Origin: Candidatus Nomurabacteria bacterium RIFCSPLOWO2_01_FULL_42_17
GTDB lineage: Bacteria; Patescibacteriota; Minisyncoccia; Phycocordibacterales; UBA9973
Direction: 5' to 3'
DNA length: 64,000 nucleotides
NCBI GenBank assembly: GCA_001785985.1
Contig: MFVE01000008.1
Span: forward strand, 8,751 to 72,750
This document shows, one piece after another, positions 44,441 to 57,964 of this stretch (positions are counted from its first letter, which is position 1; each line of letters opens with the position of its first letter). The notes beneath the pieces were generated by a model that was not told the origin of the DNA, searched no databases, and was given only the letters and a program-made list of their open reading frames with translations. Position numbers and translations under genes: made by a program.

Positions 44441-45517
44441 TTATATGCCCTCTTTTTTTAGCTCTTCTATGAGTTTGCGAGATTCGCGAGAAAGTTTTCC
44501 GGGAAGTTTGATGTTGAGTTTGATCAAGAGATCTCCGCGTTTGTTTTTCCCGATGGGCACGCCCTTTCCTCGCACGCGCAGAATTTCATTTACAGATACG
44601 CCCTCCGGAATTGTAACTTTGATCTCACCATCTAGAGTTTGGATTGGATATTCTGTACCCAATAGCGCTTCAGAAAGCTTTAAATTCAAATTCATCGATA
44701 AATCATTGCCATCACGTTTGAAGACCGGGTGAGAAGCCACATTTATTTTTATATAAAGATCGCCAGTAGTACCCTTCGAAACGGCTTCGCCAAAACCCGT
44801 CATTCGAATCATTTCCCCATCTCGTATGCCAGCTGGAATAACAATGGAAACTTCTTCCTCACGACGGAGCACCCCTTTGCCTTTGCATGTCTCACAAATC
44901 TCTTTTGGCACTTCACCTGTACCTAAACAAACTTCACAGATTTTTGTACTCGCGATATTTCCAAAAATTGTTCTTTTTGATTCACGAATATGCCCTTGGC
45001 CATTGCAAGTCTTGCAAGTTTCCATCTTTGTTCCCGCTTTCGCTCCAGAGCCATGACAAGTAAGACAATTGGAAGTTTTGGTAATCAAAATTTTTCGATT
45101 AGTGCCGAAAATAGAATCAGAAAAAGAAATTTGAACTTCGGTCGAAATATCCCGCCCACGTCTCGCTTCCCTTCTACCTCCGCCGCCGCCAAAGAAATCA
45201 CTGAAAATGTCGTTCAAATTTCCAAAATCAAAATCCGCCCCTCCACCCCGCTCGAAACCAGAAAAATCGAAGCCTTCAAACCCAGACTGCGAGCCGCCAA
45301 AGCCTTGAGCGTCGGCGCTGCCGTATTGGTCGTATTTTGAACGCTTAGCATCATCAGAAAGCACTTGATATGCCTCATTCACTTGCTTGAATTTTGCCTC
45401 ATTCCCCTCTTTTTTATCAGGATGATATTTATGCGCGAGCTTGTAGAAGGCCTTTTTTATTTCGTCCTTGGATGCGCCCTTATTTACTCCCAATGTTTCG
45501 TAATAGTCTTTTGCCAT
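44441..45517 (-). CDS. dnaJ: Chaperone DnaJ
   Basis: 358 aa. J-domain with HPD, a G/F region, and four CxxCxGxG zinc-finger repeats. Confidence 0.92.
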
Positions 45518-45524
45518 AAATTAT

Positions 45525-46994
45525 TTATATCATAGGCTCGGCTTCTTGTGAAGTTTTTTCTTTTTCGCCTTTCTCTTTTTCTTTTCTTTTCGCTCTGCCT
45601 TCGATGATCGCTTTTTCTTCAGCGCTACGAATGATCGTGGCCTCTTCTTCCGCGATCAGTTTGGCCGCATCGTCTTTTGGTATTGAATACTTTCGGCGCG
45701 AAGCATCAATAATTTCTTTCCTGAAAGATTTATGAGTCGCCGGCAAAACCCGGAGAGTTTCCGCTGAAAAAGGATCATATGATTCACCGTCGATCGTCAT
45801 TTTCACATAGATTTCGCCAACGGCGAGATTGATCATGTCTTTTACATCGAAAAGAGGCGCAAACTCTGGCTTTAATTTGACCGCATCTTCTCCACCGACG
45901 CGAAAAGTTATAACATTTCCCACATTTCCGAGCACTGCTTGATGCACCTTGGGCAAGATCTGGCCTACATACTGGTGCGCGATGGTCAGGTTTAGCCCGT
46001 ACTTGCGAGCTTCGGATAAAATATTTTCGAAAGTTTGAGTAACGACATTTTGAAACTCATCTACGTATAGATAAAAGTCTAGGCGATCTTTTTCCGGAAT
46101 AGCCGCGCGCTCCATTCCCGCCTGCTTTATTTTAGTCAAAAATATCGAACCGAGAAAAGAAGAATTTTCTTCGCCCAGACGGCCCTTGGAAAGATTGATG
46201 AAAATTATTTTCTGTTCATTCATCAATTTGCTGATATCTATCTTATTTTGTTTCTGGCCGAAAATGTTGCGTAAAAGCGGATCCGAGAGGAATTGCCCGA
46301 GCTTGTTTACTAGTGGAATGATAGCATCAGTATCAAACTTCTCGGACCAATCGGCAAATTCGATAGCGAAGAATCTTTTGACCATGTCATCCGTGATGTA
46401 TTCCACCACCTTCTGTCTGTAATTTCGGTCAGTCAGCATCGAGATCATCCCGCGCATCGTCGCGTGCGGATAATCGAGAAGCGCGAGACAAGTAAAACGG
46501 AAGACGTGCTCCAAGCGCGGCGTCCAATTTGCCCCGAATTGTTTCTGAAACACTTCGATGAGTCCCTGCGTCAGCTGAAACTTGAACATCGGGTCCACAT
46601 TCGCGAGCGGATTAAAAGATGCCGGGAAATCAATATCAGCTGGATCAATAATACACACGTCCTCCATTCTCTCTTTCGGCACATAGTCCAGCATTGCATC
46701 GATGACATCTCCATGCGGATCAATCAGGCAGAGACCATGCCCATAGGTCACATCTTGCCGAAGCATCAGTTCGAGCAGTTTCGTTTTGCCCACGCCGGAC
46801 TTGCCAATAATATAAAGATGGCGGCGGCGGTCCACCCGCTTGATGCCAAAGATAAATTTCTTTTCCTCTAAAGCGGCCACATAATTCGTCCGCCCAATGA
46901 AAGAAACATCTTCAGGTTTGACCTTGCCGAAGACCGGCAACTCTGGCGGCGGCGGTCCGTATTTGATTATTTGCACTCGATTCGGCTTTGGCAT
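45525..46994 (-). CDS. Soluble HerA/FtsK-superfamily P-loop ATPase (DUF87 / T4CP-VirD4-like 'type IV secretion DNA-binding domain' type), copy A
   Basis: 489 aa. Walker A IIGKSGVGKT followed by LIDPHGD, Walker B LYVDEFQN, and an AHQ motif. No TM segment. Paralogue of 49502-51610. Confidence 0.7.
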   Translation of the reverse strand: MPKPNRVQIIKYGPPPPELPVFGKVKPEDVSFIGRTNYVAALEEKKFIFGIKRVDRRRHLYIIGKSGVGKTKLLELMLRQDVTYGHGLCLIDPHGDVIDAMLDYVPKERMEDVCIIDPADIDFPASFNPLANVDPMFKFQLTQGLIEVFQKQFGANWTPRLEHVFRFTCLALLDYPHATMRGMISMLTDRNYRQKVVEYITDDMVKRFFAIEFADWSEKFDTDAIIPLVNKLGQFLSDPLLRNIFGQKQNKIDISKLMNEQKIIFINLSKGRLGEENSSFLGSIFLTKIKQAGMERAAIPEKDRLDFYLYVDEFQNVVTQTFENILSEARKYGLNLTIAHQYVGQILPKVHQAVLGNVGNVITFRVGGEDAVKLKPEFAPLFDVKDMINLAVGEIYVKMTIDGESYDPFSAETLRVLPATHKSFRKEIIDASRRKYSIPKDDAAKLIAEEEATIIRSAEEKAIIEGRAKRKEKEKGEKEKTSQEAEPMI

Positions 46995-47093: not shown

Positions 47094-48755
47094 TTAGTAC
47101 ACTTCTTGCTGATAACATTTCTCACAATAGACTATTTCTGGACGCTCGGGAGCATAATTTGTAGTTATTTCTTTTTTACATTTCACGCAATTACGATCCC
47201 AGAATTTATATGGACCGCGATGCGTAATGCGGTCTCGGTGGCGACAATAAAAACATTTTCGCGGTATCGGAAGGTTCATTTTTCGATAAAATAAAAGCTC
47301 TTGATTGATGATTTTATAATTACGATTGCAATCTATACACTTTAAAATTTCATCCGTGATAGAGTCTGACACATCTTTTATATGATCTGGAATATCCTCT
47401 GGTTTCATCGTTTCCTTCCCTTCTGTTTTTTGGATATCATCTTCCCATCTAAAACCAGTCTTTAGCACTTCCTCTTTTGTCATAGGCATATTGTCTTGCG
47501 CAATACTTTCGTTATAAGCAAAAGGTGCAAGCTCAGGTGGAATCATTAGCCCATATAAATCTTTTTGTTTTAATTCTTCAATTATTTTCGCTCGCAGTCT
47601 CTCATATTCTTCTTTTGAATACTGTTTATTTAAAATTGAATATTCGCCATGATGTAACGCGTCGCAACCGATGCAATTTTTACAATTTCTGACATAAAAT
47701 CCATATAAAATATCTGTAGAATTCTCTGCGCCATATGTGCCAATCACATTACTACATAGACCGGTGGCAACCACTTCAAGCATTCGTTCTGATTTAGTGC
47801 CATAGCCGATAGTGTCCATAGAATCCTTGACTCCTTTTGAGGAAAATATATATCTAGAATCTTCTGCATTGGTAGCTTCAAAAGAATCTTTAACATTTTT
47901 GCACTCAAATAAATAATCTCCAGTGGAATTGACTGTCTTAATATTATTATTTTCGCGCATTGGAAAATCTAGAATGAATTTTTGAAATTCTTTTTTGAAT
48001 TCTTCTATCTTTTCATAACTGCCCATGATTTCACCCACTTTTTTCTTATACTCTTCTGGCTGCATTGGGTGATTAAAAAAATAATACGATTTATTATTTA
48101 AATTCACACAACCGAAACAATTCATCAATCCTCGGCAATTTAAAACAAAAGCAGAATCCACTGAACCGGTGATATTTTGGCCAAAAAGTATGCCCGCAGA
48201 CTCTTGAACATTTATAGATTCATAACATCTTTCAAAACTGGTGCCAAAATACATATCAGATGAATCATTACCATGCCTGACTCCCCTTGAATAAAGTAAT
48301 TCTTCGGCCGGACTAGTATTAAAAACTAAATAGCAATTTCTACAGCCAGTAGACATATTTGTGTATTCACTATTCACGTTTGCTCCGGAACCCAGAGAAA
48401 TATATGTAGTAATTTTTGGCACTTTTTTGAGAAGCTCGCCGAACTGCTCTAAAAAAGATTTATTTTCATCATAGTCCATCGCGTAATTTTTCGGCTCCCA
48501 TTTTTCGGAGTAAAAACAATCGTAGCAATAAATAGTGTAGGGAGATTTTGGATTATACATAGAGATAATACCCTTCCCGCAAAGTCCGCACTGACGTCCA
48601 GAATAAAGAGTCGTCTCATTTCGAAACATCGCGCGCATTTTAAAACGGCACGGAGGGCAGACTTTTGGTGATGGCACCTTCATCTTTTCATAAAATCCAA
48701 GATCGTCCAAATCTAGAATAAAATCTTGCCTGCATTTTTTACAATTTTGCTGCAT
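47094..48755 (-). CDS. Cys-rich protein with duplicated FYxK-x2-(V/L)P-x-P-x2-C-x2-CR zinc-ribbon modules at both ends (copy A, partly degenerate Cys repeats)
   Basis: 553 aa. N-terminus CKKCRQDF...FYEKMKVPSPKVCPPCR. C-terminus FYRKMNLPIPRKCFYCR...CVKCKKEITT...IVYCEKCYQQEVY. Two internal YSILNKQYSKEEYE-type blocks. Paralogue of 55602-57308. Confidence 0.6.
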   Translation of the reverse strand: MQQNCKKCRQDFILDLDDLGFYEKMKVPSPKVCPPCRFKMRAMFRNETTLYSGRQCGLCGKGIISMYNPKSPYTIYCYDCFYSEKWEPKNYAMDYDENKSFLEQFGELLKKVPKITTYISLGSGANVNSEYTNMSTGCRNCYLVFNTSPAEELLYSRGVRHGNDSSDMYFGTSFERCYESINVQESAGILFGQNITGSVDSAFVLNCRGLMNCFGCVNLNNKSYYFFNHPMQPEEYKKKVGEIMGSYEKIEEFKKEFQKFILDFPMRENNNIKTVNSTGDYLFECKNVKDSFEATNAEDSRYIFSSKGVKDSMDTIGYGTKSERMLEVVATGLCSNVIGTYGAENSTDILYGFYVRNCKNCIGCDALHHGEYSILNKQYSKEEYERLRAKIIEELKQKDLYGLMIPPELAPFAYNESIAQDNMPMTKEEVLKTGFRWEDDIQKTEGKETMKPEDIPDHIKDVSDSITDEILKCIDCNRNYKIINQELLFYRKMNLPIPRKCFYCRHRDRITHRGPYKFWDRNCVKCKKEITTNYAPERPEIVYCEKCYQQEVY

Positions 48756-48765
48756 AGTTTTATAT

Positions 48766-49068
48766 TTATGCGCTAATATACTGATACTGATTCATAAATT
48801 TATAAGAAAAAGGTTCTGCGTATTTTTCCAAAATACGTCGCTCAAAAGCATCCAACTTATCGTAGCCAAGAATAAAATTTTTAATTACGCTCCATTCTTC
48901 GCGTCCGGCCGGTTTAATATCTTTAAAAGATAAAATGTTATTAACTATGCCCAGCGCGCGATTTTTTGCATTCTCCGCGGCCTGCACTTTATGTGAATCA
49001 AAAAAAGAAAAAAGTCTGCCTATTTCAGGATATAAGTTCGCCATATAAAAAAGAGAGTTCTTTTCCAT
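48766..49068 (-). CDS. Hypothetical protein
   Basis: 100 aa. Its ATG is supplied by the 83-bp palindromic element. Confidence 0.4.
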   Translation of the reverse strand: MEKNSLFYMANLYPEIGRLFSFFDSHKVQAAENAKNRALGIVNNILSFKDIKPAGREEWSVIKNFILGYDKLDAFERRILEKYAEPFSYKFMNQYQYISA

Positions 49069-49144: not shown

Positions 49145-49495
49145 TTATTTTAGATCAATAAACTTATAAATAATCTCTGTGGCTTTTTTTGTCGTTTCTT
49201 CATTATTTATTCCACGCGAGCGATTACCAGAGTTTGGTTTAATATTAACCATAGAATCAAATTCTAAAACTCCATCAGGATTTTCCTCAAAACGAATATT
49301 AAAACCCCACACATCTTCAAATTTTGAACCAGAAGCCGTCAGCATTTCTGAAGATTCAATATGATAATCCCCTCCCAAAGCAACTCGTCCAAGCTCGACA
49401 TCAACAGTGCCCTTAATCATCGTGCCATACCAAAAATCAGCCATTTTTTTTACTTCTTCCATGCTTATTTTATTATCTAAAATTTGTATCTTCAT
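49145..49495 (-). CDS. Hypothetical protein
   Basis: 116 aa with no confident family. Confidence 0.4.
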   Translation of the reverse strand: MKIQILDNKISMEEVKKMADFWYGTMIKGTVDVELGRVALGGDYHIESSEMLTASGSKFEDVWGFNIRFEENPDGVLEFDSMVNIKPNSGNRSRGINNEETTKKATEIIYKFIDLK

Positions 49496-49501
49496 TTAAG
49501 T

Positions 49502-51610
49502 TTATTCTAAAATCTTCCGCAAGACATCTTCTGGAACTTCTTTTACTTTTTCAGCCTTAGGTTGACCAGCCTCGGGCTGGGGTTTTTGAGGTATAGAAAT
49601 GGGTAGAGGAGATGGCGCAGTTTTTGATGAAATTAAATCCTTCAATTTATTCATATCCTCCGAGCTCGCGGCGCGATCAGAGCCTGTGTGGATAGGCTTG
49701 GCAGAGACAGATTCTTTTATTTTTTCTTTTAGGGCATCAAGTGAAACAGGTGCTGGAACGGGTTCTTTTATCACTGATTTCTGTGGGGCAGCTCCGTCAC
49801 TAGTGATTTTATTTAGCACTTCTCGTAACGCTAAATTTTCCTCACCGGTGCGGGCAGGTTTCGGCTTTGGAGCTATGAAAACTTTTTTAATAGCCCCGAG
49901 AATCCCAGGTTTGGGATTGATATTAGAATGAATCGTATTTGAATGCGTACCTGCTCTAAAAGGAGGCTTAACCCATTTTTTATCTAGATGATGATCCTCC
50001 CTCTCTGGATATCTTTCTTTTTCTTCATCAATATTTTTTTCCTTTTTCTCGAATTCTATACCCAAATCGGCTAGTGGTTTGAAAAAAGTGACCTCATCAT
50101 GCTTGATCTGATTTTCGGAGCCTTTTTCTACCTTTACTTCGCCAGATTTTATTTTAGCGATGCAATCTTTGCAATAAACAGCTCGGCCCGGATCGGGTTT
50201 GAAGGGCACGGTCGTTTCTTTTTTGCAGAGCGAACAAATAGCTGGAAATTTTTCTAGATTTCCGCTTCCAGTGTCGGACTCGTTGCCGAGGGACATTCCG
50301 CTCCAATTATTGATCTCTCTCTCCACCACTTCTTTGCTCTTGCAGTAAAGGGCGCGCGAAGAACGGATCACTTCTTCTTCGATCTTTTTATCGCCGGACT
50401 TCACTAGAGGTGGCAAAGTTTTGGCGGAAAAGGGACGAGAAGTAACCCCGTCGATCATCAGCTTTAGATAAATTTTATAATTCGGCAAGTTTACTATGTC
50501 TTGCGGGGTGAATTCCGGGTCAAATTCGGGCTCTAAAAATTCTGCATCGTCCGCCCCAACCCGGAAAACTATCGTCGTACCAACGTTGCCGAAAACGGCG
50601 TCTCGCACAGCTGAACTTTTATCTACTACGAGCTGAGCAGTATATTGATGGGCTACGGTGAGGTTGAGTCTGTATTTTCTAGCTTCCGAAAGAATTCCGG
50701 CGAATGCGTCCGTCACGAAATTTTGAAATTCATCCACAAAAAGATAAAAATCTTTTCTACTTTCTTCGGGAATACGCACCCGTTCCATCGCCGCTAGCTG
50801 AATCTTGGTAATGATCATACCGCCCAGAAGCCCGGAATTGTCTTCACCAATGCGCCCTTTGGAAACGTTTACTAAAAAGATCTTGCCTTCGTTCATCATG
50901 TCAAAAATATTTATCGTGCTTTTGGATTGACCGACGACATTTCGAATGATGCTGGTGGAGAGAAATTGCCCGACTTTATTTTGAATCGGCGCGATTGCTT
51001 CGTTTCGAAATTTATCCTGCCAGGCCTCGTATTCGTGTATCCAGAAAGCCTTGATGACCGGATCTTTTAAATTAGAAATTATTTTTTGGCGGTAATCTTT
51101 GTCCACCAACATTCTGGGGATACCGAGGAGAGTCGTACCCGGAGTGTCGAGTAAGGCCAAAATCGCATTGTTTAAAATATATTCCATTCGAGCGCTCCAA
51201 GCATTCGCCCAAATTTTAGTAAAAATTCCCATCAGACCCGAAGCCACCAAATGTTTGTATTGCGGATCAATCAATTCTAAAACATTAAAGCCGATATGAT
51301 GATCTGCGTCGGCTGGATTGAAATAGACGACGTCTTTGACGCGCTCGGGTGGAATGGCCGACAGGACTGCTTCGACATTTTCTCCATGAGGGTCAACCAT
51401 GCAGACCCCATCTCCATTTTTGATATTCTGAATAATCATGTTGAACATCAAAGCCGATTTACCTGTGCCGGACTTTCCAAGAATATAAACATGCTGACGC
51501 CTGTCTTTGCGCTTGATGCCAAAAAGCTGATTCCTGTCGCGATAAGTGCTGACTCCGAGATAGGTAATCTCCTTATTCTGAGGTATTTGGGGTATTTCTG
51601 GCAGATCCAT
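49502..51610 (-). CDS. Soluble HerA/FtsK-superfamily P-loop ATPase, copy B, with a C-terminal zinc ribbon and a Pro/Lys-rich tail
   Basis: 702 aa. Walker A ILGKSGTGKS then MVDPHGEN, Walker B LFVDEFQN, AHQ motif. The C-terminal ribbon CSLCKKETT...VYCKDCIAK matches the C-terminal ribbon of the Cys-rich proteins. Confidence 0.7.
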   Translation of the reverse strand: MDLPEIPQIPQNKEITYLGVSTYRDRNQLFGIKRKDRRQHVYILGKSGTGKSALMFNMIIQNIKNGDGVCMVDPHGENVEAVLSAIPPERVKDVVYFNPADADHHIGFNVLELIDPQYKHLVASGLMGIFTKIWANAWSARMEYILNNAILALLDTPGTTLLGIPRMLVDKDYRQKIISNLKDPVIKAFWIHEYEAWQDKFRNEAIAPIQNKVGQFLSTSIIRNVVGQSKSTINIFDMMNEGKIFLVNVSKGRIGEDNSGLLGGMIITKIQLAAMERVRIPEESRKDFYLFVDEFQNFVTDAFAGILSEARKYRLNLTVAHQYTAQLVVDKSSAVRDAVFGNVGTTIVFRVGADDAEFLEPEFDPEFTPQDIVNLPNYKIYLKLMIDGVTSRPFSAKTLPPLVKSGDKKIEEEVIRSSRALYCKSKEVVEREINNWSGMSLGNESDTGSGNLEKFPAICSLCKKETTVPFKPDPGRAVYCKDCIAKIKSGEVKVEKGSENQIKHDEVTFFKPLADLGIEFEKKEKNIDEEKERYPEREDHHLDKKWVKPPFRAGTHSNTIHSNINPKPGILGAIKKVFIAPKPKPARTGEENLALREVLNKITSDGAAPQKSVIKEPVPAPVSLDALKEKIKESVSAKPIHTGSDRAASSEDMNKLKDLISSKTAPSPLPISIPQKPQPEAGQPKAEKVKEVPEDVLRKILE

Positions 51611-51721
51611 ATAATGCTATTTTACAATAAAATGGCTCTTTGCGCTAATTTAACTTGACTTTTGTCTAACTTTAGAATACACTGGGAGTGTAAATGCTTT
51701 CCTTGTCGAAAGCTCCGAGAA

Positions 51722-51764
51722 ACCCCCGAAAGGGGGTTTCGTATTTTATAAAATACTCCCGCCC
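51722..51764 (-). terminator. Terminator-like hairpins just downstream of the dnaK stop (GCCCC-CGGA-GGGGC with a U-rich tail on the minus strand, and AAACCCCC-GAAA-GGGGGTTT)
   Basis: Both stems were read directly. Confidence 0.4.
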
Positions 51765-51788
51765 CCGGAGGGGCTTTTAGGAAAAATT

Positions 51789-53699
51789 TTATTTCTTCGG
51801 CGCCTCGCCTTCAGGCTTCTCTCCTTCTTTGAATTCCGCATCTTTTACTTCCGCTGGTTGCTCTTCTGGAGCTCCGGCTGGAGGAGTAGTCGTACCACCA
51901 GCCTTTTGTATTGCTTCCCCTATTTTGGACATTTCAGCCGAAAGTTCTTCGGTCGCTTTTTTGATTGCCTCTCCATCCGTGCCATCTTTAGTAGTTTTGA
52001 GCGCGGTAATTTTCATATTGACGCTGTCTTTTAATTCCGCCGGAATTTTAGCTTCGTTATCTTTCAACGCCTTTTCAGCGGTATAAATAATCATCTCTGC
52101 GGTATTTTTCACATCCACCACATCTTTTTTCTTTTTATCTTCCTCAGCGTGCATTTCCGCGTCTTTCTGCATTTTTTTAATTTCCTCATCTTTGAGTCCA
52201 GAGCTTGCTTCTATTTTGATCGATTGAGTCTTGCCAGAAGCTTTGTCTTTCGCCGTGACATTCAAGATTCCATTCGCATCCACATCGAAGGAAACCTCGA
52301 TCTGCGGCATACCGCGAGGCGCTGGTGGAACTCCGTCTAAAATAAATCTTCCTAAAGATCGGTTGTCAGACGCCATCGGACGTTCTCCTTGAACTATATG
52401 GATCTCTACGCTAGTCTGATTGTCAGCAGCCGTAGAAAAGACTTGAGACTTGCTGGACGGAATGGTCGTATTCCTCTCGATTAATTTGGTCGCCACTCCT
52501 CCGAGCGTTTCGATGCCGAGAGAAAGAGGAATGACATCGAGCAAGAGAACATCGCGCACATCTCCGGCGAGTACGCCGGCCTGCACCGCCGCGCCGAGCG
52601 CCACCACTTCGTCCGGATTGATAGACATATTCGGCTCTTTGCCGAAAAGATTTTTCACTGCCTGCACAATCGCCGGCATTCTGGTTTGTCCGCCCACCAT
52701 GATGATTTCATTTATTTCTTCCATTTTGAAAGGTGAAGCCGCTAGTGCCCTCTTGGTGATCTCAATCGAACGATCAATCAGATCTTTCGTGAGAGATTCA
52801 AGTGTGGCACGAGACATCTTCATCAATAAATGCTTCGGTCCTCCAGCATCCGAAGTGATGAAAGGAATATTTATTTCTGATTCAATGGTTGTAGAGAGTT
52901 CATGCTTTGCTTTTTCCGCAGCCTCACGAAGTCTCTGATGAGCAAGCGGATCTTTAGTTACATCAATGCCAGATTCTTTTTTATATTCTTCCGCAATCCA
53001 CTTCACTATCTTTCGATCAATATCGCCTCCGCCCATGTGACTGTCGCCATCTATAGATTTAACCTCAATAACATCACTGCCTATCTCGAGCACGGACACG
53101 TCAAAAGTTCCTCCACCAAAATCATAAACCACAATCTTTTCATTTTTCTTTTTATCAAATCCATAAGCGAGCGCGGCAGCCGTCGGCTCGTTTATAATTC
53201 TTTTTACATCTAATCCCGCGATCGCTCCGGCATCCTTGGTCGCTTTTCTTTGCGCATCATTAAAATACGCCGGCACGGTGATAACCGCTTCGGTTATTTT
53301 CTCTCCGAGCTTTGCTTCCACATCTGTCTTTATTTTTTGCAAAATCATCGCAGAAATTTCTTCCGGTCGGTAAAATTTATCTGTCATTTTAACTTTCACT
53401 CCGCCGCCATCGCCTGCTTCTATTTTAAACGGCGCGGTTCCGCGGTCTTTTTGCACTTCCGGATCGTCAAAACGATGCCCCATCAGACGCTTAATTTCCG
53501 CAATTGTATTTTCTGGATTTGTAATTGCTTGCCTTCTAGCTAAAAGCCCGACAATCCGATCGCCATTTTTTGCAGTCGCCACCACCGAAGGCGTCGTGCG
53601 ATTACCTTCAATATTTTCAATAATCTTCGGCGCGCCTCCTTCGATGACAGCGACCGCTGAATTTGTTGTACCCAAATCTATACCTATTATTTTTGCCAT
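51789..53699 (-). CDS. dnaK: Chaperone DnaK (Hsp70)
   Basis: The likely start is [14 protein letters not shown] at 53699; the ORF-track N-terminal extension is spurious. Full-length Hsp70 signatures. Confidence 0.93.
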
Positions 53700-53876
53700 A
53701 TGTTTTATTTTATTAACTAATAAATTTATTAATTTTAAAAAATCAACGCTCCCAAAACGAAACCAACTATAAACCAAAAGATAATGAGCCTAGTTCCTGT
53801 TTTTTCTAATAATCTTTTTTGTTCTGCTAACGTATCATTTACATTTTTTTCGTACATATATTTTATATAAAATTAA

Positions 53877-54270: not shown

Positions 54271-54291
54271 GTGGAGGACGGTCCTTCACAG
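54271..54291. repeat. REP2 copy (GTGGAGGACGGTCCTTCACAG), 5' flank of RAYT2
   Basis: One mismatch from a perfect palindrome. Confidence 0.75.
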
Positions 54292-55026
54292 TATGATATA
54301 AATATGCAACGACCTCATACATTTTCTATCGACGAGTACTATCATTTATATAATCGCGGAACTGACAAGAGATCTATTTTTCTAGATGTTAATGATTATC
54401 ATCGATTTATTATGCTTCTCTATCTTTGTAATACAATCGAGCCATTTGATATGCAAAAGATTTTCCGCACTAACGGTGAAGGACCGTCCTTCACAGAAAT
54501 ATTTAAACTTCATCGAGGTCAGCCCATTATTTCCATAGGCACCTGGGTACTCATGCCAAATCATTTTCATCTATTGGTAAAAGAAATAGCTGAAGGAGGA
54601 ATCACGACATTCATGCGAAAAGTGAATACTGGATATTCAATGTATTTTAATAAAAAATATGGGAGAACGGGAAATCTATTTCAGGGAAAATTTAAATCAG
54701 AACATGCCGATAATGATAATTATCTTAAGTATCTTTTTTCATATATCCATCTTAATCCAATAAAATTAATCAGAGGCGAGGATAACTGGAAAGAAGTTGG
54801 AATTACAAATCTAAATAATGCAAAAGATTTTTTATCTAAATATGAATACTCAAGTCTGCCTAGTTATCTAACTATAAAGACTAATTTTAACAAAATTATT
54901 CAGAAAGATTTATTCCCTGAATATTTTCCTGATCCAAATAATATATGGGATGATATGACAGAATGGCTTACTTCTAAAAAAGAACCCGAAGAAAAAATTA
55001 TGAAGGACGGTCCTTCACAGAAATAA
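54271..55026 (+). CDS. IS200/IS605-like HUH (Y1) tyrosine transposase of the REP-associated (RAYT/COG1943) type, paralogue 2
   Basis: 251 aa. The start may be the internal Met at 54304. YHLYNRGTDKRSIF block, HUH motif NHFHLLV, and LFQGKFKSEH...YLFSYIHLNPIKL matching the RAYT catalytic-Tyr helix. Peptides GEGPSF and KDGPSQK are encoded by REP2 copies. Confidence 0.75.
   Translation: MEDGPSQYDINMQRPHTFSIDEYYHLYNRGTDKRSIFLDVNDYHRFIMLLYLCNTIEPFDMQKIFRTNGEGPSFTEIFKLHRGQPIISIGTWVLMPNHFHLLVKEIAEGGITTFMRKVNTGYSMYFNKKYGRTGNLFQGKFKSEHADNDNYLKYLFSYIHLNPIKLIRGEDNWKEVGITNLNNAKDFLSKYEYSSLPSYLTIKTNFNKIIQKDLFPEYFPDPNNIWDDMTEWLTSKKEPEEKIMKDGPSQK
54475..54498. repeat. REP2 copy (GGTGAAGGACCGTCCTTCACAGAAAT) embedded in-frame in RAYT2, encoding GEGPSFTE
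   Basis: Perfect 8-bp arms. Same loop position as the REP1 copy in paralogue 1. Confidence 0.8.
55002..55025. repeat. REP2 copy (TGAAGGACGGTCCTTCACAGAAAT) overlapping the RAYT2 stop
   Basis: Perfect palindrome. Confidence 0.8.
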
Positions 55027-55030
55027 AAAA

Positions 55031-55558
55031 ATGAAAAACAAAAAACAGAATTACAAAGAAAAAATATTAAATTTATTGTCGGAAAGAACTGCAGTCTCTT
55101 TTACTGAGATTAATAGATTCGTGAAGGACGGTCCTTCACAGAAATACGCTGTAACCCGTTCAATAAAGGGCTTGAAGGAGGCTGGACTAATAGAACAAAT
55201 AGCATCTCCGCAAAACGAATACGCTCGTTTGACAAAAGAGGGGCAAAAAAAAGTACATATTTTAAAATTAGATAGTGATACGACACTGGTGAATACCACT
55301 TGGGATGGATTTTGGAGAATTATTTTGATAGATCTGCCAGAAGACAGAAAAAGTGAACGCGAAAGTCTACGTTACCTTCTAAAAAAAGCCGGCTTCGTCT
55401 GCTTGAAGAATTCTGCTTGGATCTCCCCTTTCCCCTTTGAACATTTGTTCACGAATATAAAAAAAGACTTGGGACTAAGAGAAGAAATGATGATCATTGT
55501 CACCGAATTTGTGGACGAAGAGACAAAAAAATTTCTATTTGAAACTTTCGGGAAATAA
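55031..55558 (+). CDS. PaaX-family-like transcriptional regulator (N-terminal winged HTH and a C-terminal PaaX_C/Cas2-like domain)
   Basis: 175 aa. wHTH ILNLLSERTAVSFTEIN...VTRSIKGLKEAGLIE. C-terminal WDGFWRIILIDLPEDRKSERESLRYLLKKAGFVCLKNSAWISPFP matches the PaaX C-terminal pattern W.G.W....D.PE...R..LR..L...GF..L..S.W.SP. Carries an in-frame REP2 copy (VKDGPSQK). Confidence 0.55.
   Translation: MKNKKQNYKEKILNLLSERTAVSFTEINRFVKDGPSQKYAVTRSIKGLKEAGLIEQIASPQNEYARLTKEGQKKVHILKLDSDTTLVNTTWDGFWRIILIDLPEDRKSERESLRYLLKKAGFVCLKNSAWISPFPFEHLFTNIKKDLGLREEMMIIVTEFVDEETKKFLFETFGK
55122..55146. repeat. REP2 copy (GTGAAGGACGGTCCTTCACAGAAAT) in-frame within the PaaX-like gene
   Basis: Perfect palindrome. 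Confidence 0.8.
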
Positions 55559-55601: not shown

Positions 55602-57308
55602 TTAATAAACCTCTTGCTGATAGCATTTTTCACAATAAATTATTGGGGAATATTTTTCATCATAAACTGTTTCGACTTCGGTCTCGCATTTTGAACATTG
55701 ACGTTTAATGGTGCAAAGCGGCGGACGTTTTTGCAAACGACGAGTATGTCTGACATCAAAACAAACTCGCGGAAGTGGCAAATCCATTCTGCGATAAAAA
55801 GAAAGTTCGTTAGAAGTAATACGAAAAGCTCCCGTAGAATACGGCTGATCTTTTTCGGCGCACTCAATAATTTCATTCAAAATAGAATCATCGACTTCTG
55901 CTATTGTTTCCGGTAAATCAGAACTTTTGATGGTGGTCGTATAATTTTTCTTTTCTTTCTCTTTCCAGCTGTATCCCCTTTTCAGCGCTTCCGTCTTAGA
56001 AAGTGGATAAAAATCTATCGCCGCAGTTTCATTATAGGCAAACGAAGACAAATCGGCAGGGAAAAACTCTCCATATCCATAGGATTTTCCTGTTTTATCT
56101 ACATATGGCATATCCTGCATATGCTTGATGATTTTTGGCAACAATACCTCATATTCTTCCTTCGTATATTTTTTATTTAAAATAGAATACTCGCCCTTCT
56201 TCAAACCTATGCATCCAAAGCAGTATCTAGAACTTGGACAAGAATCACAGTAGTATAGATCATGGGCGCCAGTCCAACATTGTGAACAGAAAAAAATTCT
56301 TGAATCGTTTATGCCACAATTTGCTGATTCATAAATAAGTTCAGAAGAATCGCCCCACTGGAAATGATCCATGCAGTCCTGTTCGTTGAATGCGAAATAA
56401 ATATATTTGCAATCCTTTAAATTCATACAGCCGAAAGAATTTTTAACATTTTCACAATTAAGAAACCAATTACCCGAAACTTTATTTGATTTTAAAGACA
56501 TAATTGCTCTCTCTGGAAACTTCTTCCTAAATTCATTAAATTTAACATCCATCATGACAATACCTGAATCAGTATTCAATTCAAACTCTTTGAGTTTTTC
56601 AAAATATTCTTCTTTGGTGTATTGCTTATTGAAAATACAAAATTGTTTATTAACCAAATTAACACAGCCAATGCAGTCAGAGCAATTTCGACAAGCGTAT
56701 AAAAATATAGAATCACGACACTCAGCGCATTCTTGAGAAAATCTGGTTTTATAACATTTATTGCAATCTATACATTCGTAGCATAGCTCGCAATGGTTCA
56801 CGTTAAAACAATCTACACAATTTTTCACATTTCGAGCCGTATAAGTATATAGCGAATCTTCACAATCCGAAGCTCGGAAAACCATATAACAATTCTTTAA
56901 ATCGTGCACTCTATGTGTGTATTCACTATTGATAGAAAAACCCTGGCGGACAAGTGCCATGCGCGGAACTTTATTAAATAATTCTTGAAATTGTGAAAAA
57001 AATGGCCGAGAAAAATCGTATTCTTGGCCATATTGATACGGATCCCATTCATCAGAGTAAAATTCTTTGGTTTCGTAGACCGGAAAAGGCGCTTCGGGTG
57101 GATACATACTAAAAATATCTTGCCCGCTCAAGTCAGACTTTCTTTTGTAAAATACTCGCTCATTGGCACCCACCATGCGTCGCACTGACCGGCACTCTGG
57201 ACAAAAAGTTGGTGGCGGGACTTTTATTTTTTCATAAAAAGAAAAATCATCCAGTTCGATGGTGAAATCTTTTTTACAATTTTGACAATTTTTTGTTTCG
57301 TTTTGCAT
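55602..57308 (-). CDS. Cys-rich protein with duplicated FYxK-x2-(V/L)P-x-P-x2-C-x2-CR zinc-ribbon modules at both ends and a central period-8 Cys-repeat region (copy B)
   Basis: 568 aa. N-terminus CQNCKKDF...FYEKIKVPPPTFCPECR. C-terminus FYRRMDLPLPRVCFDVR...CSKCETEVET...IIYCEKCYQQEVY. Central NCVDCFNVNHCELCYECIDCNKCY... and two YSILNK(K/Q)YTKEEYE blocks. Confidence 0.6.
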   Translation of the reverse strand: MQNETKNCQNCKKDFTIELDDFSFYEKIKVPPPTFCPECRSVRRMVGANERVFYKRKSDLSGQDIFSMYPPEAPFPVYETKEFYSDEWDPYQYGQEYDFSRPFFSQFQELFNKVPRMALVRQGFSINSEYTHRVHDLKNCYMVFRASDCEDSLYTYTARNVKNCVDCFNVNHCELCYECIDCNKCYKTRFSQECAECRDSIFLYACRNCSDCIGCVNLVNKQFCIFNKQYTKEEYFEKLKEFELNTDSGIVMMDVKFNEFRKKFPERAIMSLKSNKVSGNWFLNCENVKNSFGCMNLKDCKYIYFAFNEQDCMDHFQWGDSSELIYESANCGINDSRIFFCSQCWTGAHDLYYCDSCPSSRYCFGCIGLKKGEYSILNKKYTKEEYEVLLPKIIKHMQDMPYVDKTGKSYGYGEFFPADLSSFAYNETAAIDFYPLSKTEALKRGYSWKEKEKKNYTTTIKSSDLPETIAEVDDSILNEIIECAEKDQPYSTGAFRITSNELSFYRRMDLPLPRVCFDVRHTRRLQKRPPLCTIKRQCSKCETEVETVYDEKYSPIIYCEKCYQQEVY

Positions 57309-57340: not shown

Positions 57341-57964
57341 TTATTCTCTATACTCATACACATTCACTCGCGCTGGGCGCATCACTCTATCGCCCAACTT
57401 GTAGCCTTTTTGAATTACACTTGAAACTGCATGATCGAGTTCCTTTTTATCGGTTGCCATCAATTCCATGGACTGATGAATGTTAGGATCAAACTTTTCC
57501 CCTACTTCGCCTATAGGTTTCACTCCATATTCTTCAAAAACTGTATTCATCTGTCCGTAGATATATTCCACACCGCGTCTCCAATTCTCATCCACTTTCT
57601 CCCATGCCTCACGGTTAGCGAAAGCCATATTGAAACTATCCACCACCGATAGAAAACGGGTCAAAATCCGCTCGCGCATTGATTCGGAAAACATCGCTTT
57701 GCGATCATCCTCGCCTTTTTTGTAATTGGCAAATTCCGCCCGCTCCTTCTGCCAGCCAGTAAGATATTCTTCCTTCTCCTTTTTGCACGCTTTCAAATCT
57801 TCCCTAAATTTCTTTAGAGTCTTTTTTAAATCTTCTTCCCCATCTTCATTGAATTCAAATTCCAAAACTTCAGAATCAGTTTCTGGAACTATATTTTCAG
57901 GATCTTTTTTAATTTCCCCGCCTGCATCGTTATGCGAAGCATTGCGGGCAGGTTCATCAGACAT
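57341..57964 (-). CDS. grpE: Nucleotide exchange factor GrpE
   Basis: 207 aa with the GrpE coiled-coil and beta-domain (DPNIHQSM, GYKLGDRVMRPARV). The N-terminal tail carries 40-bp element copy B, encoding EPARNASHNDAGG. Confidence 0.9.
   Translation of the reverse strand: MSDEPARNASHNDAGGEIKKDPENIVPETDSEVLEFEFNEDGEEDLKKTLKKFREDLKACKKEKEEYLTGWQKERAEFANYKKGEDDRKAMFSESMRERILTRFLSVVDSFNMAFANREAWEKVDENWRRGVEYIYGQMNTVFEEYGVKPIGEVGEKFDPNIHQSMELMATDKKELDHAVSSVIQKGYKLGDRVMRPARVNVYEYRE
57916..57953 (-). repeat. Copy B of the ~40-bp GC-rich hairpin element, sense-oriented in the grpE 5' end
   Basis: Plus strand CCCCGCCTGCATCGTTATGCGAAGCATTGCGGGCAGG. Inner GCGAAGC mini-hairpin. Confidence 0.65.

Follow-up and report, generated by a model that had tools for sequence, protein, structure and literature searches.

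The N-terminal zinc-binding domain of ClpX, a C4 treble clef with x18 spacing between its cysteine pairs, sits on a hexameric AAA+ ATPase and recruits adaptors and substrates. A four-cysteine finger with 17 residues between its CxxC knuckles is catalogued in Pfam as PF23477 (zf_Tbcl_2, "probable treble clef zinc finger") and in NCBIfam as TIGR04272 (CxxC-x17-CxxC domain); literature searches on the Pfam and TIGR accessions and on the name "zf-trcl" gave no result. Two CxxC-x17-CxxC proteins of Methanosarcina mazei bound zinc, as determined by inductively coupled plasma mass spectrometry, and the authors of that study suggest a transcription-related role (PMC12704099). As for motor proteins, Patescibacteria encode 5713 VirD4-like homologues of the type IV coupling proteins (T4CPs), only 148 of them near virB4, for which possible exaptation has been raised (PMC12102498). 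In the present study we analyzed a stretch of 64,000 nucleotides from the patescibacterium (CPR) Candidatus Nomurabacteria bacterium RIFCSPLOWO2_01_FULL_42_17 (contig MFVE01000008.1, positions 8,751 to 72,750), hereafter the window, which encodes a T4CP-like ATPase with a CxxC-x17-CxxC finger, here called ATPase B, its paralogue ATPase A and two cysteine-rich proteins, Cys1 and Cys2. The finger of ATPase B appears to be a canonical PF23477 domain, of which Cys1 and Cys2 bear divergent relatives, and we consider it fairly probable that the two families use a mobile module independently and that the module on ATPase B is a recognition appendage. The main features are as follows.

45525-46994, minus strand: ATPase A, 489 residues, an ATPase B paralogue without finger or tail
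47094-48755, minus strand: Cys-rich protein 1 (Cys1), 553 residues, with two two-finger modules
49502-51610, minus strand: ATPase B, 702 residues, with P-loop core, finger and tail
50150..50251, minus strand: predicted treble-clef zinc finger of ATPase B, residues 454-487, matching PF23477/TIGR04272
55602-57308, minus strand: Cys-rich protein 2 (Cys2), 568 residues, a full-length Cys1 paralogue with 38% identity

A catalogued finger on ATPase B

The minus-strand stretch 50160-50245, to which an earlier note had assigned a zinc ribbon shared with the Cys-rich proteins, translates to PAICSLCKKETTVPFKPDPGRAVYCKDC; the coordinates of the note are offset by about 9 nt from the peptide that it quotes, which is of no consequence. 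The core of the finger, CSLC-x17-CKDC, comprises residues 459-483 (50162-50236, minus strand), and the four-cysteine motif is real, as it exceeds the cut-offs of both databases, scoring 46.0 bits against 27 for PF23477 and 48.6 bits against 36 for TIGR04272. The PF23477 domain and the CxxC-x17-CxxC pattern with VPFxPxxGRPVYC are found in all of the closest homologues of ATPase B (120/120), and several public sources already call orthologues "CxxC-x17-CxxC domain-containing protein". By its profile matches, the finger of ATPase B is thus a canonical member of a catalogued and already annotated domain. It does not lie near the C-terminus, where it had been placed, but follows the ATPase core, and about 220 residues, which the structure model predicts poorly, come after it.

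Our GTDB survey covered 80 ATPase-anchored loci spread over Patescibacteria, with 4258 open reading frames (ORFs). The CxxC-x17-CxxC finger is retained in fusion by 69 B-type orthologues, including those of lineages without a Cys-rich neighbor, and their consensus is C-S-x-C-G-K-x-T-x-V-P-F-x-P-x-P-G-R-P-V-Y-C-K-[DE]-C; seven B orthologues have lost the finger and keep the LGIEFE motif downstream of it. None of the 44 A-type paralogues has the finger, and ATPase A of the window, which contains three cysteines and no CxxC, lacks it as had been stated. The comparison indicates that the fusion to the B paralogue is old, being kept in most B-type orthologues across the phylum. The conserved non-Cys positions of the finger, V10, P11, F12, P14, P19, V20 and Y21, are hydrophobic or proline and are accompanied by one Arg, and the flanks of the finger in ATPase B are Lys-rich. 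In the consensus proposed earlier for ATPase B and the Cys-rich proteins, the "E-x-(T/E)" positions are not conserved across homologues.

Divergent fingers in the Cys-rich proteins

The fingers of Cys1, together with the C-terminal finger of Cys2, are listed below. Fingers 1 and 3 are of the type of PF13451 (zf_Tbcl, "probable treble clef domain", once annotated zinc ribbon), which is not present in ATPase B, and fingers 2 and 3 of Cys2 are degenerate.

48648..48743, minus strand: Cys1 finger 1, residues 5-36, CxxC-x24-CxxC, PF13451-type
48516..48590, minus strand: Cys1 finger 2, residues 56-80, CGLC-x17-CYDC, PF23477-type, 18.4 bits on the ATPase-finger profile
47244..47339, minus strand: Cys1 finger 3, residues 473-504, CxxC-x24-CxxC, PF13451-type
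47115..47189, minus strand: Cys1 finger 4, residues 523-547, CVKC-x17-CEKC, PF23477-type, 24.6 bits on the ATPase-finger profile
55623..55697, minus strand: Cys2 C-terminal finger, residues 538-562, CSKC-x17-CEKC, 9.8 bits on the ATPase-finger profile

Both ORFs end as quoted in the earlier note, Cys1 with CVKC-x17-CEKC and Cys2 with CSKC-x17-CEKC, each followed by YQQEVY, and exactly 17 residues separate the knuckles in these terminal fingers and in that of ATPase B. The C-terminal module of Cys1 also aligns to the N-terminal module of Cys2 (E=5e-7). Against Pfam itself, Cys1 stays below the PF23477 cut-off (15.8 versus 27 bits) and Cys2 has no match; among 87 diverse members of the family, PF23477 is matched by 41 at E≤0.01, the best value being 8.8e-10, and PF13451 by 31, with a best value of 4e-8.

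A hidden Markov model (HMM) was built from the 69 ATPase fingers and run on the 4258 ORFs. It reached the N-proximal and C-terminal fingers of the Cys family with up to 24.9 bits, whereas the best unrelated ORF scored 8.9 bits, and DnaJ zinc fingers were not among its matches. Reciprocal HMMs of the Cys family matched the ATPase fingers at up to 28.4 bits, the profile cross-matches between the two groups being 20-28 bits, and hhalign gave a probability of 96.8-97.0%. When the four Cys columns were removed, the similarity of columns in register still stood z=4.9-5.2 above column permutations, the signal coming from K6, F/Y12, P14, V/I20 and Y/F21. On the ATPase-finger HMM, real Cys-family fingers had median scores of 18-22 bits, compared with 2.8±2.5 bits for 5000 decoys in which nothing but the CxxC-x17-CxxC skeleton was retained (99th percentile 10.6, highest score 23.8). 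Given the conserved non-Cys positions and the cross-HMM and decoy results, the resemblance therefore goes beyond the bare CxxC spacing that, according to the earlier note, would have left its proposal without basis. Judged from these profiles, Cys1 and Cys2 carry fingers that belong, as divergent representatives, to the domain family of the ATPase finger, as had been claimed; the terminal finger of Cys2 is marginal when taken alone (9.8 bits), so it is assigned via its positional homology with finger 4 of Cys1.

Predicted fold of the fingers

The AlphaFold2 model of Cys1 has a mean predicted local distance difference test score (pLDDT) of 84 and a predicted template modeling score of 0.84, and both finger modules exceed a pLDDT of 85 (84-97 range). 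In all four fingers of the model, the first CxxC occupies a beta-hairpin turn and a helix begins at the second, with hairpins at 51-55/62-65 and 519-522/529-532 and helices from C77 and C544. The Cys1 fingers are therefore predicted to be treble clefs, and on this model topology the label "zinc ribbon" was dropped. For ATPase B, whose model has an overall pLDDT of 57.7, strands 455-458 and 465-468 and helix 481-488 are predicted at a local pLDDT of 58-70, that is, the treble-clef topology is seen at low confidence only, and the model was too poor to serve as a query for fold searches.

Between the two-finger modules, the Cys1 model contains a middle region, followed by a helical region. The middle region is modeled with lower confidence, is largely irregular with few regular elements and is possibly beta-solenoid-like; its matches to left-handed beta-helix or YadA-like structures were weak and not significant. 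With the Cys1 model as query, Foldseek returned no PDB structure at E<1, and a PDB sequence search with the Cys-rich family and a free-standing two-finger protein found no relative, just weak LIM and C2H2 noise. Among viral models, the finger modules alone are matched, by "putative zinc-ribbon domain" proteins; those of phages, which are of the PF13451 type, superpose on the Cys1 model with 0.6-0.9 Å over about 43 residues.

A widespread two-finger module

A tblastn search of plasmid and phage records with the ATPase finger led to proteins of 92 residues from Oscillospiraceae that are labeled "zinc-ribbon domain containing protein", for example MYEDKTLVCKECGQEFVFTAGEQEFYAERGFQNEPQRCKACRDARK...CAACGGEARVPFEPKSDRPVYCSECFAKMREQG. 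Each is built from a PF13451 finger and, after it, a PF23477 finger, and a protein search found 7777 clusters of such free-standing PF13451+PF23477 proteins. On the ATPase-finger HMM the second finger of these proteins reaches 51-66 bits, as much as the ATPase orthologues do, whereas it reaches just 18-27 bits on the Cys-family HMMs. The finger of ATPase B is hence far nearer to the second finger of the Firmicutes proteins than to the Cys-family fingers, which reach at most 24.9 bits among the ORFs of the loci, and it follows from these scores that ATPase B bears the canonical form of a widespread module. It has the same CxxC-x17-CxxC and VPFxPxxxRPVYC and exceeds the same cut-offs as the members of PF23477/TIGR04272 exemplified by the small zinc-binding proteins of M. 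mazei and by the second finger of the Oscillospiraceae proteins. Unlike the free-standing proteins, however, ATPase B has a single finger, which is fused after a T4CP-like core without a preceding PF13451 finger.

The Cys-rich proteins, by the same comparison, have at each end a complete two-finger module in diverged form, the pair being duplicated, and the core of the family has no known relative. Because their PF13451+PF23477 architecture is that of the free-standing proteins, the sharing of the finger would reflect independent use of a mobile module rather than an exchange between neighbors, and nothing in these sequences suggests domain exchange between adjacent genes. The earlier note had taken the shared finger as a sign of a physical or functional link between the ATPase and its neighbors. 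As the finger is catalogued and widespread, however, its sharing adds little evidence that these proteins work together.

In four of six loci (L161 3851-4129; L162 3842-4135; L163; L164), the gene for the 92-residue protein, which comes from Oscillospiraceae or related gut contigs, is found just 3' of a sigma-70 family gene, an arrangement that hints at a transcription-related role of the two-finger module.

Synteny and distribution

What does argue for a link is gene order. At least one Cys-family gene is present in 31 of the 80 ATPase-anchored loci. Across the 80 loci, the number of such genes interspersed on the same strand with grpE, dnaK, ATPase B, ATPase A and dnaJ ranges from 0 to 6, and the spacing is frequently as small as 5-60 bp. 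Conversely, in 19 of 36 Cys-anchored metagenome loci of at least 12 kb, an ATPase is found within 10 kb (binomial p=2e-14 against an assumed chance of about 6%). From this recurrent tight synteny across Paceibacteria, the two gene families are likely to be functionally linked, so that the connection proposed earlier stands by synteny but not by the shared finger.

The finger itself does not track the Cys-rich genes. At least one Cys-family gene within 10 kb accompanies 29 of the 69 finger-bearing ATPase B genes and two of the seven finger-less ones (L044 with three, L055 with four), and no covariation was found when this was tested (Fisher p=0.69). The finger is also kept in lineages L059-L079, which have no Cys-family neighbor within 10 kb. 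These proportions mean that the finger neither depends on nor predicts adjacent Cys-rich genes.

The Cys-rich family comprises 3602 clusters at E≤1e-3 in a search of 50%-identity representatives and was seen here in Patescibacteria only, mainly in Paceibacteria, with a PF13451 + PF23477 module at each end of proteins of about 550 residues. The last CxxC lies exactly six residues before the C-terminus in 138 of 147 diverse full-length members (P0241-P0390), with the terminal consensus [VI]YCExCYxxE[VI]Y-COOH; in the window, the YQQEVY codons and the stop occupy 47094-47114 and 55602-55622. A free C-terminus this invariant suggests that the end of the protein is a recognition element. About half of the 147 members are without an exact CxxC pair at the C-terminus. 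In many paralogues of L003-L021, the first knuckle of the terminal finger is replaced by a longer C-x-C...H-x-H...C element, and C-x2-C-x2-C-x2-C runs occur in the middle region of many paralogues; extra metal sites are therefore possible. Solo or tandem Cys-family genes are also found directly 5' of mraY-ftsW-murG-like or pgk-like genes, named by sequence inspection (L085, L100, L103, L105, L111 and L112; L115, L119, L126 and L128), which makes the family dispersed, multi-copy and not confined to the ATPase locus.

A coupling-protein-like motor

The VirD4/TrwB-like P-loop core of ATPase B spans residues ~35-430, with GKSGTGKS as Walker A and DFYLFVDE as Walker B. It exceeds the Pfam cut-offs of PF10412 (TrwB_AAD_bind, 41.3 versus 20.5 bits), PF02534 (T4SS-DNA_transf, 30 versus 20.1 bits) and PF12696 (TraG-D_C, 26.4 versus 22 bits), and TrwB is its sole sequence match in the PDB. 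ATPase A and ATPase B are paralogues with 45% identity over 430 residues. In the C-terminal extension of ATPase B, placed like the tail of TraD, a LADLGIEFE motif 3' of the finger is kept in orthologues that include several finger-less ones (L044, L050, L054-L056); here it is seen as KPLADLGIE, residues 511-519 (window ~50054-50080). The extreme C-terminus, EVPEDVLRKILE, is also conserved.

The likeness to TrwB, VirD4 and TraD lies in the core and in the position of this extension, whereas several features set ATPase B apart. It fails all equivalog and subfamily cut-offs of NCBIfam, the best score being 47.7 bits against 366 (TIGR03743), and it is paired with a paralogue and sited between dnaK and dnaJ. 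It has no N-terminal transmembrane (TM) domain; no TM or hydrophobic segment is predicted in either ATPase. In the first 28 kb of the window, the ten largest ORFs are housekeeping genes, and VirB4, relaxase, competence and replication genes are absent from this set. These features fit the orphan T4CP homologues described in most Patescibacteria (PMC12102498). A defense-system identity was checked with PADLOC and rejected, since the ATPases gave just weak generic P-loop matches (mad8, HerA) and the Cys-rich proteins gave none.

Related lineages encode a separate TM partner. In about 30 loci (L032-L080; e.g. L047 4850-6172, L071 6071-7654), a protein family of about 430 residues with one or two N-terminal TM helices and no Pfam match is encoded directly 5' of the ATPase B orthologue. 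In L066 (144-2714), the TM protein and the ATPase are naturally fused in a single protein of 856 residues. Given the upstream TM family and this fusion, ATPase B resembles the soluble half of a motor that is similar to the coupling proteins but split into two polypeptides. In these non-Nomurabacteria loci the usual and deeply conserved order is SecD-SecF, a Sigma70_r4+HARE-HTH protein, the TM partner and ATPase B, SecD and SecF being named by sequence inspection; a small TM protein, ATPase A and Cys genes can lie between the TM partner and ATPase B, and EF-P or MnmA often comes after ATPase B.

Possible roles of the finger

The explanation that we regard as fairly probable is that the B paralogue of an orphan VirD4/TrwB-like ATPase carries the PF23477 finger as a recognition appendage, the finger being a mobile module that is used independently in the Cys-rich proteins. 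The four cysteines of ATPase B would bind one zinc ion, and, with the disordered tail and the short motifs conserved in it, the finger would form a recruitment or recognition appendage of a hexameric motor, analogous to the gamma domain of FtsK, the C-terminal tail of TraD and the zinc-binding domain of ClpX. Membrane anchoring of the motor is probably provided by the separately encoded TM partner, and the Cys-rich proteins might be co-operonic clients, adaptors or cofactors in which the same class of finger reaches the same kind of ligand. The likeness to ClpX consists in a single C4 treble clef on a ring ATPase and in the local CSxCGK...YC.xC pattern. It is a functional analogy, because in ClpX the finger is N-terminal with x18 spacing and the motor is of the AAA+ class, versus the FtsK/HerA/T4CP superfamily here.

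Several observations weigh against this explanation. The recognition role is one that we infer, and the analogy to FtsK gamma, the TraD tail and the ClpX domain is purely functional; the zinc-binding domain of Escherichia coli ClpX scored about 0 bits on the ATPase-finger HMM, so that no sequence relation was detected. The model of ATPase B is poor (pLDDT 57.7) and does not fix the placement of the finger relative to the motor, and the TM partner was not found in the window or in the Nomurabacteria-type loci. Moreover, the finger has been lost in several B orthologues that keep the tail motif, which indicates that it is dispensable in some lineages, and about half of the Cys-family genes sit away from ATPases.

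A second possibility, which we judge rather unlikely, is that the shared finger is an interface that docks the Cys-rich proteins on ATPase B, by finger-finger pairing or through a common ligand. The two families are co-operonic in many Paceibacteria, this class of finger occurs in these two families only among the 4258 ORFs of the 80 loci, and the Cys family, in which 138 of 147 members stop six residues past the last finger, seems to expose a recognition element at its terminus. However, lineages L059-L079 keep the finger without adjacent Cys-rich genes, the finger-less B orthologues L044 and L055 still have three to four Cys neighbors, and presence of the finger is unassociated with such neighbors overall. 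ATPase A is equally co-operonic yet has no finger. In addition, the finger of ATPase B resembles the free-standing proteins of Firmicutes far more than the fingers of its neighbors, so there is no sign that it has co-evolved with them.

It is improbable, in our view, that the finger is a nucleic-acid module with which an FtsK/HerA/T4CP-type DNA or RNA translocase grips its substrate, the four-finger Cys-rich proteins binding the same substrate. The core of ATPase B does match the DNA-coupling proteins TrwB, TraD and VirD4 as well as HerA, the flanks of its finger are rich in Lys, and the sigma-70 gene next to the free-standing proteins in four of six loci agrees with the transcription-related role suggested for the M. 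mazei proteins (PMC12704099). But the conserved non-Cys positions, hydrophobic or proline with one Arg, do not form a basic surface, no member of the finger family has been shown to bind nucleic acid, and relaxase, VirB4, competence and replication genes are absent from the ten largest ORFs in the first 28 kb. Finally, a coincidental likeness between unrelated metal sites with generic CxxC...CxxC spacing, to which the Pfam results for Cys1 (15.8 bits against a cut-off of 27) and Cys2 (no match) and the 9.8 bits of the Cys2 terminal finger, just below the 99th percentile of the decoys, might have pointed, is hardly credible and was ruled out by the decoys, the column permutation (z≈5), hhalign (97%) and the Pfam scan of 87 members, and neither DnaJ nor ClpX fingers score.

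The finger itself, then, is ordinary, being a known domain already annotated on this protein family, and the stronger lead is its context, namely an orphan T4CP-like ATPase pair, a split TM partner and a Cys-rich family with an invariant C-terminal finger. A speculative reading, to which we would give little credence, is that the ATPase pair, the separate TM partner and the multi-copy Cys family make up an undescribed machine specific to Patescibacteria, in which the Cys-rich proteins would be cargo or interchangeable adaptors known by their invariant terminal finger, and the finger of ATPase B would serve in docking as its match or its competitor. Patescibacteria have thousands of VirD4-like ATPases of unassigned role (PMC12102498), and a conserved pair of paralogues among them is now tied to partners that can be tested: the finger and tail on the B paralogue, the split membrane partner in other lineages, and the Cys-rich family of 3602 clusters, which is partly inside the dnaK-dnaJ operon.

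Neighboring genes

The remaining genes and elements around the ATPase pair are as follows.

57341-57964, minus strand: grpE, 5' of Cys2
55031-55558, plus strand: PaaX-like gene, between Cys2 and dnaK
54271-55026, plus strand: IS200-like Y1_Tnp gene, between Cys2 and dnaK
51789-53777, minus strand: dnaK, 5' of ATPase B
51761-51774 and 51719-51740: two GC-rich hairpins, between the dnaK stop and ATPase B
49145-49495, minus strand: DUF5674 protein, 116 residues, 6 bp 3' of ATPase B and in the same place in several loci
48766-49068, minus strand: 100-residue protein, recurring with DUF5674 between ATPase B or Cys genes and ATPase A
44441-45517, minus strand: dnaJ, 7 bp 3' of ATPase A

On the minus strand the order of transcription is grpE, Cys2, dnaK, ATPase B, the DUF5674 protein, the 100-residue ORF, for which a family match was not found, Cys1, ATPase A and dnaJ, and adjacent genes in the part that begins with ATPase B and ends with dnaJ are 6 to 99 bp apart. 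The hairpins that follow the dnaK stop codon look like a terminator or attenuator that sets dnaK off from this part, and ATPase B may therefore start its own transcript. A gene for a PaaX_M (Cas2-like) or MarR-like regulator, represented here by 55031-55558 (plus strand), lies just 5' of dnaK on the opposite strand in 17 of the Nomurabacteria-type loci L001-L022 and may regulate the cluster of chaperones and ATPases. In and around the Y1_Tnp gene and the start of the PaaX-like gene, the palindrome GAAGGAC[CG]GTCCTTC occurs four times (54273-54287, 54478-54492, 55002-55016 and 55123-55137), compared with about 0.1 expected by chance, an arrangement that resembles repetitive extragenic palindromes with their associated tyrosine transposases (REP/RAYT-like).

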